A stretch of DNA of 64,000 bases from Escherichia phage tootiki, in sequence record MN850647.1; one strand, written 5' to 3'. Below, piece after piece: positions 3,822 to 55,086 of the stretch (position 1 is the stretch's first letter; each line of letters opens with the position of its first letter). A model generated the notes under the pieces. It did no database searches and had not been told where the DNA came from. It worked only from the letters and a program-made list of their open reading frames with translations. The position numbers and the translations under genes were made by a program.

Positions 3822-3880
3822 TTGCTTTTTATAATTTTTTGCAGTAATGTATGAGGTTAATGATTTTAGAGGGAGTAAAA

Positions 3881-6023
3881 ATGGAAAACGTAGATTTTAA
3901 AAACTTACATTTGGTTGGTGATACAGAAACTGATGGTTTACTCCTTGAGTTCACTAAAGTTCACGTAATGGCCTTTGCAGACTATAAATCTGACGATGAA
4001 GAGCCACCTGTATGGGTCTTTACAGATGAGCCTATCCTCGGTCACAAGTACACTAAGTACATTAAGGGTGGTTTACGTGAAGGTGTTGAGTTTGCGTTAA
4101 AGGCAAAACGACTTTGTATCCATAACGGCCTCGGTTATGACTGGTGGGTCTTCAATCACATTGCACCGGATTTATGGAACTTTGATAATCCAAAATGTAA
4201 GCCGTGGAGTAATTTCTTTCAGGATTCTCTTATTCAGTCTCGTGTTCAGTGGATGGATAGACCAACTCCAAAGGGTTATAAAGGTGCTCATGGTTTGGCT
4301 GCATGGGGTGCTCGTGTTGGTGTTCGTAAACCAGAGATTGAGCATTGGGGTGTATGGAATGCAGAAATCTTCACTCGTGTTGTAGAAGATATCCGTATTA
4401 ATGCCAAAACTAAACGGGCACTTGATAACGAGTATCTCAAGCTTAAGAAGTGTGGTATAGACACTTATGAGACTTACATGCGAGCTAAAGAGACATCTTT
4501 CTGGATGAGCCAGCAAGCTATCAATGGTTGGAAAGCTGATAAGGAGCTTATGGAGTTCCATGTAAAGGAACTTGACAAGTTGACTAATGAGCTTGCTTCA
4601 GAGGTTGAACCACATCTACCTCCAACTATTAAGACCAAAGGTAAAGTGACTGGAGAAGAGTTTGCAAAAGCTTGGAATGAGTATGTTGAAACATTTGGTC
4701 ATGCAGATGGACTGAAGAGAATTACCAAGTACCCTAAGACAAAGTACCGTCAGCAGGTACGTAACGGTGAGATGCAGACATACGAAATCAAACCATTTGG
4801 TAAGCCAACTACAAAGATTTTTAATATTGAAAAGAGAAATTGCTATACACCAACCAACTCTGTAACTGGTGAAGAGTACAAAGAGGGTTTTGTAGCGATG
4901 AAGGATGCTCGTGCAATCTGCAACGAGTTGAATGCAAAGATTGGCAAAAAATGCAAAGACTGGAAACCAGTAAAAACAGTCAAGACTGTGAAGTACTATA
5001 ACAGTCACGTTGTCAATCACTTTGAACTTGAGTCAAGTCGCTACACAGGTTTGATTGATGCACCATATACACCAATTGAGTTTGAAGTTTCTCGTATGAC
5101 TCAGGTAGCAGTTGTTAAAGACTACTTGAAATCAGTTGGTTGGATTCCAGATGACTGGAATTACAAGAAAGACTCAGATGGTCGCCCTATCAAAGTTTGT
5201 CGTTTCAAAGACAATAAAAAGATGATTACAAAGCATCCTAAGTGGCAGGAAATGGTTGAGCGGTGTGGTTTGAGTTATGTTGAACATGAAGGTGTACAGT
5301 ACATCGAGCATAACTGGTCTGTGAAGAAATACACAGATTTGCTTGAACCTTGCTTAATCCGTACTTCACCAAAACTTACTGAGTCATCTTATGATACGAT
5401 TGAAGGTGAACTTGGACAGAAGATTGCTAAGTACTACACTTTGATGCACCGACGCAGAACTATTGAGAACTCAAAGGATGATGAAAAAGGTTGGTTGAAC
5501 CAGATTCGTCCTGATGGTCGCCTTAGTGCTGGTGCAATGGTATTTGGTACTTCAACTGGACGTATGACACAATATGGTATTGTAAACGTACCGTCTGGTG
5601 CTGCTGTCTATGGAGCACCTATGAGGGAGGTGTGGACTTGTGAAGATGGTACAGATATCATCTCCGTAGACCAAAACTCAGCCCAGCTAGTTCTTCTTTG
5701 TAACTTTATGGGTGATGAAGACTTCACTAAAGCAGTAACCGAGGGTAAAGAGTCAGTAGAGTTCACTAAGCAAGATGATGGTAGGTACTACTGTAAGCAT
5801 CTTGACAAGTATCTTAACCCAGAAACTGACAAGTATCTGCGTTATGATGCTGAGAATGACCTCTATGAAGTCTACACAGGGACTGATGCGCATACACTGA
5901 ACAGTATTTACTTTGGTCTGAACAAGGAAGAAGATATTGTTCGTTGTAGGGAGACACAGGATGATGAGCTTCTTCACGAGATTACAAAAGGTCGTAAGAA
6001 GGCTAAGAATGGCATTTATGCGT
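3881..6023 (+). CDS. DNA polymerase, family A (T7 gp5-like), exon 1 (3'-5' exonuclease and N-terminal polymerase domain)
   Basis: ATG at 3881 after GGAGG; Exo I motif LVGDTETDGL; reading frame ends inside motif B (RKKAKNGIYA) and is followed by an in-frame stop at 6062. Confidence 0.85.
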
Positions 6024-6291
6024 CAGTGGCGCATGTAAAACGTTGTGAATTGCTGGAAGCCTAAGTCTGTAAAGATATGGTAATCAGCAGCGAAGCCTCT
6101 TAAGAGGAACGTTCAGAGACTATCGAAAAGCATACTTAACGTATGAACTGAGTAGAGTAGGGTGGTAAGCTAATGACCATCCCCAAGTGCAACGGTAGCA
6201 CCACTGCTACGTGATATAGTCCGACACTCCGTAGAAATGCGGAGAAGTTCATAAGAGAACTGGTACACCTTGCGAGTGTATTGACCAGATG
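6024..6291 (+). ncRNA. group I self-splicing intron (ORF-less) interrupting the DNA polymerase gene
   Basis: Q-like AATCAGCAGC (6082-6091), R element GTTCAGAGACTA (6111-6122), S element GATATAGTCC (6213-6222); 5' exon ATGCGU can pair with intron GCGCAU (6029-6034) as P1 with U.G at the splice site; intron ends in G at 6291. Confidence 0.65.
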
Positions 6292-8444: not shown

Positions 8445-8632
8445 ACAAAGAAGATAAGCATAAAAATGCTGTACGGACTCCCGATGGAAAGATTCAGTCC
8501 TTCGTCCTGACAGTTGGTGGAAAGCCATTTCGTTGCCACTGCGGAACAAACTGTTTTCATAAACCAGATAAAAATGACTTAGAGCTTTACGCATGTAATG
8601 CTTGCAATACTTGGTATCACTCAGAGGAATAA
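8441..8632 (+). CDS. Cys-rich zinc-ribbon-like small protein
   Basis: CHCG...CNACN cysteine pairs. Confidence 0.5.
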   Translation: MNKEDKHKNAVRTPDGKIQSFVLTVGGKPFRCHCGTNCFHKPDKNDLELYACNACNTWYHSEE

Positions 8633-8634
8633 AA

Positions 8635-9738
8635 ATGACAATCCTATACAAACAAAATAAAGATGGCTCTTTCAACGTCTGGTCATGCGTTGCTGTAGGT
8701 GACAAAGTTATTACAACCTATGGTAAAGAAAATGGCAAGATGATGTTTGAAGAGTACACAGCAGAACCGAAAAACATCGGTAAAAAGAATGAGCGTAACG
8801 CTGAACAGCAAGCTCTCTTTGAAGTTGCTGCTAAGTATAAAAAGCAAGTTGACCGTAAAGGCTACGCTTACACAAAAGAGTCTGCAAAGAATACTGAGAA
8901 AGTAGGTGTACAACTTGCTCATGATGCTGCAAAGGTTAGTCATGCAAAGTATCTGAAGTTCCCTGCTGATGCTCAACCAAAACTTGATGGTGTACGTTGT
9001 AGAATTTCAAGACACTTAAGTATTGGCAGTGTATTTACAGCATATTCTCGTGAGAATACTGTTTACAAAATCCCTACTGAACTAATACCTGACATTATGG
9101 CAATGTTAAGGCTCCACAAAGATGTTGATGAATTTGATGGAGAGATTTATGCTCATGGGTGGGACTTAGAAGATATTGTCTCCATGATTAAAAATGAAGA
9201 CAATCCTGACAGACACTTACTTAAGTTCTACTGGTATGATATCTGTGACAGTACTAAAACGTGGCCTGAGCGTAGAGATATTATTGAGACTTCACCATTG
9301 AATGACTTTAGAGACGGCTGTAAAGTTGTCCCTGTTAAATCTCGTCGTGTAAATTCTTGGGAAGAGTTTGATGAAGCTCATGATAAGTGGGTTGAAGCTA
9401 AGTTTGAAGGTGCAATGTACCGTTCAATCTCTGAAGAATCTTTCTACGAGTGTGGTCACCGTTCATACTTCTTGATTAAACACAAGAAGATGCACACTGA
9501 AGAGTTTAAAGTGACTGGTGTAAAGACCGATAAGCGTGGTCATGGCAAGTTCGTTGTAGAGACTCTTCCTAATGTCTTTGTAGATGTTTCATGGAAAACT
9601 ACCCATGAGAAGAAGAAGTATCTTGCTGAACATCCTGAAGAGTTTATCGGGAAACCTTTAACGGTTCAGTTCCAGAAGATGACTCGTAAGGGGTCTTTAC
9701 AGTTCCCTGTAGGGCTAGTTATTAGGGATTATGAATAA
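8635..9738 (+). CDS. ATP-dependent DNA ligase
   Basis: Adenylation motif I KLDGVRC; start at ATG 8635 after AGGAA. Confidence 0.75.
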   Translation: MTILYKQNKDGSFNVWSCVAVGDKVITTYGKENGKMMFEEYTAEPKNIGKKNERNAEQQALFEVAAKYKKQVDRKGYAYTKESAKNTEKVGVQLAHDAAKVSHAKYLKFPADAQPKLDGVRCRISRHLSIGSVFTAYSRENTVYKIPTELIPDIMAMLRLHKDVDEFDGEIYAHGWDLEDIVSMIKNEDNPDRHLLKFYWYDICDSTKTWPERRDIIETSPLNDFRDGCKVVPVKSRRVNSWEEFDEAHDKWVEAKFEGAMYRSISEESFYECGHRSYFLIKHKKMHTEEFKVTGVKTDKRGHGKFVVETLPNVFVDVSWKTTHEKKKYLAEHPEEFIGKPLTVQFQKMTRKGSLQFPVGLVIRDYE

Positions 9739-9895
9739 ACTATGTTCAGTACAGTCATTCTGTTTATACTGGTTGTCTTTGTATTGTCATACGTTGCAAG
9801 TAAGCTTTTGGACACATCTTTTGCAATGGGTGTCTTGTTTACAATCTTTTGTTTCGTGACACATATAGCTATCAGAACTTTTTTATAAAAAGTTG

Positions 9896-9923
9896 TTGAC
9901 ATAGAAAATTTGGTGAGTATACT
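9896..9923 (+). promoter_or_regulatory. sigma70-type promoter candidate
   Basis: TTGACA (9896-9901), 16-nt spacer, TATACT (9918-9923), AT-rich upstream sequence. Confidence 0.5.
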
Positions 9924-9959
9924 GAGCAGCATAAACCAACGGGTACTCACCAACATCAC

Positions 9960-10230
9960 TTAAGAGTCTTTGAAAAGGGTTTTTTAAGTGATGTGGGGCG
10001 AGGCTCGGTGAGGTGGGGTAAGGCATAGTGCGGTGCTGTTTGGTATGGGTAGTTAGTCTCATCTACATTAAAATGAGACTTACCTTTTTAAAAGGTCTTT
10101 AAGAGGGTTTTTTAATGAGGTAGGGTAAAGTAATGCTTGGTCTGGTTTGGTAAGGTGCGGTCTGGTTTGGTAAGGTAAGGTTCGGTATGGTATGGGTGGA
10201 TGGTAGTATCCACGTTAAAAATCTACCAAG
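9960..10230. repeat. intergenic G/T-rich repeat region with GGTCTT-containing motif
   Basis: Tandem GGTCTGGTTTGGTAAGGT x2 (about 10138-10177), GGTAAGG/GGTATGG runs, AAAAGGTCTTTAAGAGGGTTTTTTAA box. Confidence 0.5.
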
Positions 10231-10285
10231 TTTCTAAAGAGTCTTCTGTTGAGGGTTCTTTACAAACAACTTAACAATCAACTAA

Positions 10286-10891
<606 letters not shown>

Positions 10892-10893
10892 TT

Positions 10894-11334
10894 ATGAATA
10901 CGAAAGCATTAGCAGCAAAGTTTAGTTACGGTGACACTGTATCACATTCTGAGATGGATATCTTCTTAGGTATTGTGAAGCCAACTTATCAAGGTGACAT
11001 TGTTAAGTACGAAGATGAAATGAAGGCTTATTCGCTTACACGTCTAAACCGACTTGAGAAGTTTATTGAGAAGCTTCTTAAAGAAGAGAAGATTTATCTG
11101 GTTGCTTCAATGGGTGTTGGTTATCGTGTGGTTGAACCTAAGCATCAAGCAACTATTGCAAAACGTAAAATGTCTGGTAAGATTGGTCGAGCTTTAAAGC
11201 AAGCCACTCAAGCAATTGAGAATGTGAACACTATGGCACTTAGCCATCAAGAACGTTCACGACTAATTGAACAGCAAAACCATTTAGCTGCTATGAAAGC
11301 TAACATTAACAAGCAACGTAGAAAACCTTTCTAA
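10894..11334 (+). CDS. hypothetical protein
   Basis: 146-aa ORF followed by a hairpin plus T-run terminator. Confidence 0.6.
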   Translation: MNTKALAAKFSYGDTVSHSEMDIFLGIVKPTYQGDIVKYEDEMKAYSLTRLNRLEKFIEKLLKEEKIYLVASMGVGYRVVEPKHQATIAKRKMSGKIGRALKQATQAIENVNTMALSHQERSRLIEQQNHLAAMKANINKQRRKPF

Positions 11335-11342
11335 GTTGACTA

Positions 11343-11369
11343 GGCAGCCTCTTCGGAGGCTCCTTTTTA
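11343..11369 (+). terminator. rho-independent terminator
   Basis: GCCTC-TTCG-GAGGC hairpin followed by TCCTTTTT. Confidence 0.6.
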
Positions 11370-11460
11370 AAAGGTCTTTAAGAGGGTCTTTTAACAAGGT
11401 ATTGTATGGTGTAGTTTGGTTAGGTATGGTTAGGTGTGGTAAGGTAAGGTATGGAAGGAT
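11366..11460. repeat. second copy of the GGTCTT box and G/T-rich repeats
   Basis: TTAAAAGGTCTTTAAGAGGGTCTTTTAA, then GGTTAGGTATGGTTAGGTGTGGTAAGGTAAGGTATGG. Confidence 0.5.
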
Positions 11461-11578
11461 AGCAGTAGCCTTATAAAAAATCTGCCAAATAAGCTATAAA
11501 ATCTGTTGACAGGTCAGGTGTTATAGCTTATTTTTATACTCAATGTAATACAAAATTTAATATAACTTTGAGGTCATT

Positions 11579-19295: not shown

Positions 19296-27314
<8,019 letters not shown>

Positions 27315-39016: not shown

Positions 39017-39092
39017 TGGAGAATCCGAAGGGACTCGAACCCTTATAAACCTGTTCTGCAGACAGGTACATATCCATTTCTGTCACGGATTC
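39017..39092 (-). tRNA. tRNA-Cys (anticodon GCA)
   Basis: Cloverleaf by eye: acceptor GAATCCG/CGGATTC, anticodon stem CCTGT/ACAGG, loop CTGCAGA, T-loop TTCGAGT, CCA encoded. Confidence 0.7.
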
Positions 39093-39096
39093 AAAT

Positions 39097-39189
39097 TGGA
39101 GGAAGATACCAGACTTGAACTGGTACACCGATTTCTCAGCTACTGGCAGTTTAGCAAACTGCTCCCTTACCTTTTAGGGTTAATCTTCC
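39097..39189 (-). tRNA. tRNA-Ser (anticodon GCT), long variable arm
   Basis: Acceptor GGAAGAT/ATCTTCC, anticodon loop TTGCTAA, 21-nt variable arm, T-arm ACCAG-TTCAAGT-CTGGT. Confidence 0.7.
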
Positions 39190-39190
39190 A

Positions 39191-53449: not shown

Positions 53450-55086
53450 AATATCTTAAGAGCCTCCTTAATTGGGGGCTTTTTAATTTTTATAAAATTT
53501 TATCGGTTGTCCCAACCTCTGGGTCACCATCATATGTGAATAAAATATCTACCCTTCTTAACAACCTTCTTAATCTTACTCTCTATATAGTTATATAGTA
53601 CTATATAGTATCTTAGTAACTATCTAGTGGTCTTAATAGCCCTCTGTATAGCCCTTCTAAATAGCCTTCTAAACACTCTTCTAACAAGCCCTCTTAACCA
53701 CCTATACAATCACCTTAACCATCCCTCTACACCCTCTTAGAAGCTCCTATACACCTCTTAATCTCTAGGTTAGCTATGGCACTCTCTATAGGTGTTCACT
53801 AGGTAATACTAAGCCTCTATATAGACTGTTTTAACAAACTTAACAGGAATATCTTTACAGACCTTACCTCACAAGGTCTAACACGGTACTAACAAGGTAT
53901 CTTGTAAGCCTGTTTCTACCTGTATTTTTAAAAGACTGTATAGGTAATTATTCAGAATTTTAAAATTTTTATAAAATAGGACTATCAAGTCATTTTTTAG
54001 GGTCTTTGAAGGAACTGAAAAATATCTGTCTAGGATGTATATCTGCTTGGTAGCCCTTAACAGCTCCCTTACAAGTACTTTGCAAAATTTTAAAATATCC
54101 TTAACAATCTCTTAACAGTTCTCACATCTTCTTAACAACTCTTCAAAGGTCTTAACAGATTCTTAACAGAACTAACAAGGCTGTAACAGTTTCTTAACAG
54201 TTGATACATAATCTTTACAGAGGCTTAACAGATGACTAACAAGAGCTAACAAGTTAATTTTAAAGAGTTATTTTGTTAAGATTATTAACAAGTTTCTAAC
54301 AAGTCTTTAATCTTTTTAACAAGCTATTAACATGGTCACTATCTCTTTCTTATCGTTCCCTTTCCTTTCTTAGTGATTCTTTAAACATACCTCTTAAAAG
54401 CTCTCTATAGCTCTTTATAAGCTCTTTTAAGTCTCTTCCTAGTAGTTACACCCCAACTGTACAGATAGCTCTCTATAGGGCTTTACAGGAGCTTTTAAGG
54501 CTATGTCAAAGACTCTTACAAGGCTTTTACGTGGTCTTAACAGAGATTTAACAAGGGGCTAACAAGTTGCTAACAAGTGTCTTAAAAGCATAACTATGTA
54601 GGGATTGTTAAGAAATTGTTAAGAAAATGTTAAGGGGGCTAGTATTTACGTAACTTTTAAGCTACTTCAAAATAACTTTTAAGCTACTTCAAAATAACTT
54701 TATAGCCCCCTTCTTAGATATTCACAAGATAACTAATGAGATGATAAAGCTTACACCCTTATAAGATTCTTTTAAGGCTCTGGGAAGCTTTATAAAGGGC
54801 TTTTAATGGTGAGGTAATGCAATCCCTTAAGTTAGGTTAATAAGGTCGTTATAGGGCTTTATAGAGCGTTTAAATGGTTGCCCTTCCCTTTCGGGTTATG
54901 GGCTTATATTTAAGTTGATTTGATAAGGGGCTATAGAGTAAGCTATAGAGTTATTGTTTTTTAAGGTCTGATAAGATTCTGGAAAGGAAAGGGAAAGGGT
55001 TGTATAAGGGATTTGATAAGACGTAAAAAAGCCCCATATAAAGGGGCTGTAAAGGTATCTGGGGCTATTTAGCCCCGTTGCGGCGT
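53450..55086. repeat. 1.6-kb ORF-free region dense in short direct repeats (iteron-like)
   Basis: No ORF of 60 aa or more in any frame; many copies of CTTAACAG / CTAACAAG / TTAACAAG, CTATATAG and CTCTATAG motifs; tandem 22-bp repeat at about 54655-54700. Confidence 0.6.

Follow-up and report, generated by a model that had tools for sequence, protein, structure and literature searches.

The VIPR (Viral Interference Programmable Repeat) systems were introduced by the Doudna laboratory in a bioRxiv preprint first posted on 27 April 2026, with a version of 25 June 2026 (10.64898/2026.04.26.720920). Their protein, Vipr (~20 kDa, with an RRM core, a G-loop and a thumb), branches early among the relatives of the CRISPR RAMP proteins; it is accompanied by an accessory vap gene and by the vrRNAs, which carry 9-16 YNNGG repeats followed by an invariant tail; in the SUSP1 clade this tail contains a pseudoknot (10.64898/2026.04.26.720920). 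In the case of phage SUSP1, the vrRNAs were sequenced as RNAs of ~100 nt and co-purified with Vipr, the ribonucleoprotein binds dsDNA under a 1-nt skip rule, and transcription is repressed on either strand without a PAM-like flanking motif (10.64898/2026.04.26.720920). In such targets the skipped base often falls on the wobble position of a codon. Perturbation of the GGY bases abolished silencing (the tested mutants include single GGY substitutions, GGY>GGA among them), and the natural SUSP1 guides are mostly aimed at a satellite that parasitises the phage (10.64898/2026.04.26.720920). In the structural preprint (10.64898/2026.04.26.720927), cryo-EM places one Vipr protomer on each repeat in a right-handed filament, with the GGY bases flipped into protein pockets, the NN bases paired with the target strand so that every third base is skipped (NNxNNx...), and the pseudoknot capping the 3' end of the filament. 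VIPR is a newly described form of RNA-guided DNA recognition with a non-contiguous code and a proposed ancestor of CRISPR effectors.

The effector backbones of Class 1 CRISPR systems (Cas7/Csm3 on crRNA) resemble VIPR in their RAMP fold, in the binding of one protomer per fixed RNA step, in a thumb that flips bases at regular intervals and in a variable guide that is capped by a structured handle. They differ in that each VIPR step covers 5 nt, of which three are sequestered and two pair, and in that the target skips one base per step; the guides are tracts of pentamers, unlike the contiguous spacers of CRISPR. VIPR is moreover encoded by a virulent phage.

The VIPR locus of phage tootiki

The window analysed here is a stretch of 64,000 nucleotides from Escherichia phage tootiki (MN850647.1), a member of the Felixounavirus. 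The region of interest (9960-10230) is flanked by the DNA ligase gene (8602-9738) and a 48-codon hydrophobic ORF (9742-9888) on one side and by a 195-codon gene starting at 10304 on the other. Escherichia phage heid is 99.3 % identical over the region. The repeats of this region are not discussed in the genome papers of Felix O1 and UAB_Phi87.

The 195-aa product of the downstream gene (10304..10891, + strand) belongs to the RAMP family, which has the fold of CRISPR Cas5/6/7, and is identical at 191 of 195 positions (98 %; E-value 8e-128) to PDB 36pp_D, deposited as 'SUSP1 Vipr protein'. When the family profile was compared with solved structures, a single match was obtained, again PDB 36pp (E-value 4e-80). 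The AlphaFold2 model of the protein (pLDDT 95.7) was matched by Foldseek to Csm3/Cas7 RAMP chains, with an E-value of about 3e-5 to Csm3, and the RNA-contact residues H17, K33, E71, M72, R138, C173, D177, W178 and R179 are all present. The next gene on the + strand (10894..11334; 146 aa; PHROG 5926) encodes a protein identical at 145 of 146 positions (99 %) to the product of the SUSP1 gene downstream of vipr, and it is taken here to be vap1, the gene of the Vipr accessory protein. Pfam and PHROGs returned no function for vipr or vap1, and no Pfam match to TRAP was found.

On the basis of these two identities the locus was assigned to type II VIPR and its repeats were read as vrRNA guides. We put the probability that the region consists of two vrRNA guides of a type II VIPR system, with a third downstream of the vipr-vap1 operon, at about 95 %. 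All VIPR features that can be tested in silico were found here except for the target rule, which holds for guides A and C and does not hold for guide B (see below). The locus is already known in kind: it belongs to the same clade as the experimentally characterised SUSP1 system, and therefore no new kind of system is added. What is new are the predicted targets of guides A and C, a guide B for which no target was found, and the leader hairpin.

Compared side by side with SUSP1 (L018), the tootiki locus occupies the same position between the DNA ligase gene and the next operon, uses the same leader types, three tail types and GGY/NN unit, and has the same predicted target class, an E. coli satellite with tape-measure and baseplate homologues. 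The two loci differ in their NN series and in arrangement, since SUSP1 has one vrRNA upstream and three downstream whereas tootiki has two upstream and one downstream; the phages also belong to different genera (Suspvirus and Felixounavirus, respectively). By analogy, at 98-99 % protein identity, Vipr and the vrRNAs of tootiki would be expected to work like those of SUSP1 in expression, loading and repression. CRISPR-Cas was also looked for at the locus, and neither a repeat-spacer array nor adaptation genes were found; only vipr and vap1 lie between the ligase-side genes and the downstream genes.

About 520 homologues of Vipr were found, mostly unnamed proteins of ~190 aa without a Pfam domain. 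Arrays of GGY on the + strand accompany the gene pair in most of the distant loci examined (Vipr identity 37-40 %), including those of Rhodococcus and Xanthomonadaceae; because the arrays stay beside the gene pair at this depth, protein and repeats were shown to form one system before a name was attached to it. In one distant locus (L027) the two genes are preceded, separated and followed by GGT arrays, another (L026) has GGC arrays, the Xanthomonadaceae locus has three tandem modules after the gene pair, and L022 has a single weak array far from the pair. In the case of the two Streptomyces loci (L030/L031), the script detected no array and only a degenerate tract is present. Where the gene downstream of vipr was read in distant loci (L027, L028, L030/L031 and L032), it encodes a partner of 146-178 aa. 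Closer to tootiki, the whole cassette is found in about half of the Felixounavirus records and the others, many of them from Salmonella-infecting phages, keep only the flanks, so that the cassette is an accessory module.

Two further observations were made among the homologous loci. The records matched by the cassette include 'Staphylococcus phage SA1' and 'Campylobacter phage A132', which look mislabelled or contaminated. On the chromosome of Rhodococcus globerulus (L028, 5117-5646), five tandem vrRNA-like modules follow the vipr/vap pair, and modules 1-4 end in a constant element, GGTGGTCCGGGATGGTCACAACGGCGGTTCGATTCCGCCGCCGGACA, that resembles a tRNA acceptor/T-arm minihelix; the same locus gave weak T-arm matches to the tmRNA model and two odd ARAGORN calls ('tRNA-???'). 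These elements may be handles for host tRNA-processing enzymes.

Guide modules, leader hairpins and tails

When the G/T-rich DNA was read in register, it resolved into NN-GGY units with a 5-nt period. A preliminary description of the region, made from its letters, had listed GT-rich repeats, and these do occur where they were placed: GGTAAGG was found at 10017, 10149, 10169 and 10174, and the tandem GGTCTGGTTTGGTAAGGT at 10139 and 10159 (Tandem Repeats Finder: period 20, 1.9 copies, 100 % match). The true regularity is stricter, however, and the 20-nt tandem (10139-10176) simply falls within the guide tract of the second module.

Three modules were observed, all on the + strand: A (9995-10084), B (10117-10231) and C (11396-11490). 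Modules A and B lie upstream of the two-gene pair (10304-10891, 10894-11334), and module C lies downstream of it, behind an intrinsic terminator-like hairpin with a T run after vap1 (terminator scan; 11346..11368, + strand). Each module consists of a leader with a box, a repeat tract and a 40-nt tail. In-phase GGY was found in 8 of 10 units at 9995-10044, 13 of 15 at 10117-10191 and 9 of 11 at 11396-11450, and no GGY run was present on the - strand. Among 200 first-order Markov simulations of the window, none contained a run of at least 7 in-phase GGY, the largest being 5. The third module is outside the coordinates of the preliminary description and was missed there, as was the recurrence of the box.

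The guide tract of vrRNA A (9995..10049, + strand; phase analysis) holds 11 NNGGY units with NN = gg ga tc ga gg aa at gc gc tt at, the count following the convention of SUSP1 vrRNA1, by which the last NNGGG unit is included. That of vrRNA B (10117..10196, + strand) holds 16 units with NN = ga ag aa aa tt ct tt aa gc ct tt aa aa tc at at; this series recurs unchanged in at least 3 other phage loci, among them L009, L010 and L017. The tract of vrRNA C (11396..11455, + strand) holds 12 units with NN = aa at at gt tt ta at ta gt aa aa at, and the same guide is also present in L008 and L010.

A strong sigma-70-type promoter, TTGACA-16-TATACT, precedes modules A and B on the + strand, as had been noted earlier (9896..9923, with TTGACA at 9896 and TATACT at 9918; consensus scan 11/12). 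Judging from its position, transcription of vrRNA A, vrRNA B and the vipr-vap1 operon probably starts here. Module C sits behind the terminator-like hairpin, and the promoter scan gave no good sigma-70 site for it. The region had been described as a long untranslated region, which is correct in so far as it would be transcribed on the + strand from this promoter, but it is not merely the regulatory 5' UTR of the gene at 10304; as read from the sequence, 9960-10230 encodes two stand-alone guide RNAs, with a third after the operon.

The variability within the units was measured in 59 unique arrays (685 units), taken from 19 loci with Vipr proteins 97-99 % identical. The information content is 0.05 and 0.10 bits at the two N positions and 1.28, 1.86 and 1.49 bits at G, G and Y, respectively, which means that hypervariable NN bases are set in a constant framework. 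Across 18 close loci both proteins are 97-99 % identical and the number of modules varies, the arrays detected by script ranging from 0 to 3 upstream and from 0 to 3 downstream per locus (lower bounds).

Each tract runs into a tail that can be folded as an H-type pseudoknot. The tail of vrRNA A is of type t2 (ATGGGTAGTTAGTCTCATCTACATTAAAATGAGACTTACC; 10045..10084, + strand; tail alignment and covariation), its pseudoknot being followed by a T run. The tail of vrRNA B is of type t1 (ATGGGTGGATGGTAGTATCCACGTTAAAAATCTACCAAGT; 10192..10231, + strand), the type of SUSP1 vrRNA1, and that of vrRNA C is of type t3 (ATGGAAGGATAGCAGTAGCCTTATAAAAAATCTGCCAAAT; 11451..11490, + strand), the type of SUSP1 vrRNA4. 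A single H-type pseudoknot fits all four tail types (28 distinct tails), with helix 1 formed by columns 5-8 with 19-22 and helix 2 by columns 11-15 with 32-36. In these helices 99.2 % of the cells pair (30-44 % in slid-partner controls) and changes on both sides were seen in 8 of 9 pairs, a covariation count that is supportive and not a probability because four tail types represent few independent events. No Rfam match with an E-value of 1 or lower was found in 9880-11560, and none at the gathering score; Rfam 15 has no model for the repeats.

The 26-nt box AAAAGGTCTTTAAGAGGGTTTTTTAA of the preliminary description is indeed present at 10090-10115. It proved to be one of four copies of the pattern GTCTT-N3-7-AGGGTNYTT (9966, 10095, 10241 and 11374), all on the + strand in the VIPR locus, where 0.04 copies were expected. 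At the level of sequence, the box makes up both arms and the loop of a predicted 10-bp RNA hairpin before each guide, for example AAAAGGUCUU-UAAG-AGGGUCUUUU. The box copy at 10095 corresponds to a leader hairpin of type 2, AAAAGGTCTT-TAAG-AGGGTTTTTT (10090..10113, + strand), in which 10 of 10 positions pair, 3 of them as G-U, and a second hairpin of type 2, AAAAGGTCTT-TAAG-AGGGTCTTTT, was identified before guide C by pattern match and pairing (11369..11392, + strand). Guide A is preceded by a leader of type 1, CATCACTTAAGAGTCTTTGAAAAGGGTTTTTTAAGTGATG (9954..9993, + strand; pattern match), the type also found in SUSP1 vrRNA1 and vrRNA4, which contains the first box copy (core 9966-9984). At minimum free energy this leader folds into a stable hairpin (z = -3.7 for 9945-10088), lengthened by the arms CAUCACUUAA/UUAAGUGAUG. 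The remaining copy belongs to a leader-type hairpin without a guide behind it, AAAGAGTCTT-CTGTTG-AGGGTTCTTT (10236..10261, + strand), which lies just 5' of the vipr ribosome-binding site and is kept in all close loci.

Among 30 distinct hairpin variants, all ten positions pair in 24, compensatory changes occur at pairs 1, 4 and 5, and the loop varies in both sequence and length. Three of the pairs are normally G-U, so the complementary strand is unable to form the hairpin. If the mature RNAs are ~100 nt long, the hairpin would lie outside them, and for this reason it is read as a putative signal for processing, loading or assembly of the guides. Our tentative proposal, to which we give somewhat worse than even odds, is that the hairpin before every guide and before vipr marks maturation or the start of the filament in type II vrRNA arrays. 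If this is true, the array would be a series of hairpin-guide-handle units, formally nearer to a CRISPR repeat-spacer array than has yet been described. The maturation of type II vrRNAs is not mentioned in the text of the discovery preprint (10.64898/2026.04.26.720920), where cleavage is named only in the legend of a ribozyme array, nor in the accessible part of the structural preprint (10.64898/2026.04.26.720927). The leader hairpin itself is likewise absent from the text of the two preprints as far as this was available, and it could explain how guides are excised or loaded.

Predicted guide targets and the satellite

In the supplement of the VIPR preprint, proteins of the satellite are reported as homologous to the tape-measure and baseplate hub proteins of SUSP1. 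Of 5426 complete E. coli genomes, 474 gave matches, annotated 'phage baseplate protein', to the window gene that follows the tape-measure gene (24287-25084, - strand); nucleotide identity is 90-96 % over the first ~545-780 nt, and these matches led to the satellite loci L044-L063. Identity of this order suggests recent gene exchange between helper phage and satellite. The satellite is ~10-12 kb long and encodes a small recombinase, a Dam-type methyltransferase, a helix-turn-helix protein, small ORFs, tape-measure and baseplate genes and a large recombinase; at least 4 insertion sites were observed (mdtG, yciI/tonB, ymdF/wrbA and a DUF72 gene).

The published target rule was applied to 53 unique guides from 19 phage loci and 7 satellite variants. 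With a cut-off of at least 80 % NN match, 26 of the 53 guides found a match at a skip of 1 nt, compared with 1, 0 and 0 guides at skips of 0, 2 and 3, respectively. The 1-nt skip rule was thereby replicated independently.

The three guides of the window were then scanned against 20 satellite loci (out of about 500 carrier genomes), using 100 unit-order shuffles of each guide as the control. Guide A matched 21 of 24 NN bases as scanned (L057, L060 and L061), or 19 of 22 (86 %) over its 11 true units, with a shuffle maximum of 19. The site, GGAGAATCAGAGAGGAAGATTGCAGCGTTACA, lies in the large recombinase gene and is in frame, the skipped base being the wobble position. Guide C matched 22 of 24 in L056, L059 and L061 (shuffle maximum 20) at AAAATGCTAGTATTGTATATATAAGTTAACAGAAT, in the divergent promoter region upstream of the satellite operon; this site overlaps a promoter-like site, TTGACA-17-TAGTAT, and covers its -10 element and start region. 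Both sites are present in one satellite, that of strain VL46 (L061); E166 and SCEC020001 are further strains that carry a satellite. The predicted target of guide A is thus the recombinase gene of an E. coli satellite ~10-12 kb in size, which carries copies of this phage's tape-measure and baseplate genes, and that of guide C is a promoter-like site in the same satellite, at its -10 element and start region. From these matches we infer that the phage may silence its parasite with guides A and C.

In the case of guide B, no target was found among the 20 satellite variants; its best match (22 of 32) was equalled by 46 of 100 shuffles. Its exact pattern (10 units) gave 0 matches in viral contigs and 7 in genome contigs, all from unrelated taxa. 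The exact pattern of guide A (8 units) had 10 matches in viral contigs, none of which extended beyond chance. No self-target was detected in the window, where the best 1-nt skip match (0.71) equalled the background; the SUSP1 guides are likewise without a self-target (VIPR preprint). A BLAST search of the tail-plus-leader junction against E. coli genomes gave no match, and no GGY array was found in the first 15 satellite loci fetched. Guide C also gave a skip-3 match (20/24 in L055), which was considered as a possible satellite vrRNA and was dismissed as an AT-rich chance match.

The GGTCTT hexamer and other readings of the repeats

The preliminary description had read the region as a long untranslated region and had suggested a common DNA- or RNA-binding factor for the GGTCTT box and the tRNA-spacer box. 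In the corresponding model, the tract is a long 5' UTR in which a single factor binds the repeats and the box as well as the boxes between the tRNA genes, co-regulating the gene at 10304 and the tRNA cluster. The tract does lie between a strong promoter and that gene, the hexamer is present in both motifs, and the hairpin at 10241 and the tRNA-spacer box have the 8-mer GTCTTCTG in common. When counted over the window, however, GGTCTT occurs 43 times on the + strand against 39.5 expected under a maximal-order Markov model and is not over-represented. The tRNA-spacer box is a separate 20-mer, TTGCTGWAWWYGGTCTTCTG, with four copies on the + strand (43379-43398, 43468-43487, 43856-43875 and 44022-44041; 0.09 expected), and it lies in the spacers of tRNA genes encoded on the - strand. 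Apart from the hexamer it bears no relation to the leader box, and its orientation relative to transcription is opposite. The box pattern, in turn, is confined to the VIPR locus, and modules also occur downstream of the operon in numbers that vary between near-identical phages. A common factor is therefore very unlikely. The earlier suggestion of a factor that binds nucleic acid in a sequence-specific manner, with the repeats as its platform, is supported, but the recognised motif is not GGTCTT: it is GGY at a 5-nt period, which would be bound, one protomer per repeat, by Vipr, encoded immediately downstream.

Further GGTCTT contexts at 41693, 46260 and 47440 (- strand) are box-like, but none of them fits the hairpin pattern. 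The tRNA cluster itself (39017-44210, - strand) comprises 24 genes by ARAGORN, and a further weak Rfam tRNA match (33 bits) without an ARAGORN call was seen at 42555-42633.

The TRAP site in the trp leader of B. subtilis consists of (G/U)AG triplets separated by 2-nt spacers, in about 11 or more copies of single-stranded RNA. The present repeats share with it the conserved triplet, the 2-nt spacers and thus the 5-nt period, and the copy number (11-16), and the arrays of L027 abut ribosome-binding sites. One could accordingly suppose that a ring- or filament-forming protein binds GGU repeats in the mRNA leader and controls termination or translation, without any target in trans. The triplet is GGY and not (G/U)AG, however, and the binder is identified as Vipr, a protein with the different RAMP fold, which assembles into a filament where TRAP closes into an 11-mer ring, and which reads DNA by means of the NN bases. 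The spacers, irrelevant in TRAP sites, are informative here: a site acting purely in cis leaves their hypervariability unexplained among loci with Vipr proteins 97-99 % identical, and it is only with a 1-nt skip that the NN strings find matches in satellite DNA. Arrays also follow the operon. Such leader control is very improbable, and the repeats are best read as vrRNA guides.

The sequence also fits the minimal pattern of two-tetrad G-quadruplexes, (GG-N3)n, which might act structurally in RNA or DNA, for example as pause or stability elements. The conserved pyrimidine after GG (1.49 bits) is needless for a quadruplex, perturbation of GGY abolished silencing in SUSP1 (10.64898/2026.04.26.720920), and the guanines are flipped into protein pockets in the cryo-EM structure (10.64898/2026.04.26.720927), all of which makes this reading scarcely credible. 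Hardly any weight can be given either to dsDNA iterons for partition or replication proteins, as implied by the GenBank labels 'possible binding site of StbAB' (KhF3) and 'DR_4' (wV8), which are corrected here, and by a lag-10 autocorrelation that equals lag-5 in some arrays, since the arrays are on a single strand in every locus, the leader hairpin needs G-U pairs and so can form only in + strand RNA, the tail pseudoknot covaries, and sequencing detected RNAs from the corresponding regions of SUSP1, which co-purified with Vipr (10.64898/2026.04.26.720920). Readings of the region as a Rho site or as Chi-like or boxA-like elements, made from sequence alone, were dropped after Vipr had been recognised.

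Some other features of the window were recorded. A 12-bp tandem, CTTAACAAACAA, is found at 10258-10283, between the hairpin that lacks an array and the vipr ribosome-binding site, where a weak promoter-like site, TTTACA-18-TAAAGT (10259-10288), overlaps it. The tandem is similar to the CTTAACA repeats of a non-coding region of ~1.6 kb near 54 kb (53450-55080), which is dense in 10-12 bp periodic repeats (CTTAACA, CTCTTAA and CTCTATA) and includes an exact 22-bp tandem at 54651-54701. Possible roles of this non-coding stretch are those of an origin, a terminus or a regulatory region. Finally, a match to the Rfam group I intron, whose 61 bits exceed the gathering score, was obtained at 5961-6244 on the + strand, where it overlaps the end of a 737-codon ORF (3851-6064).
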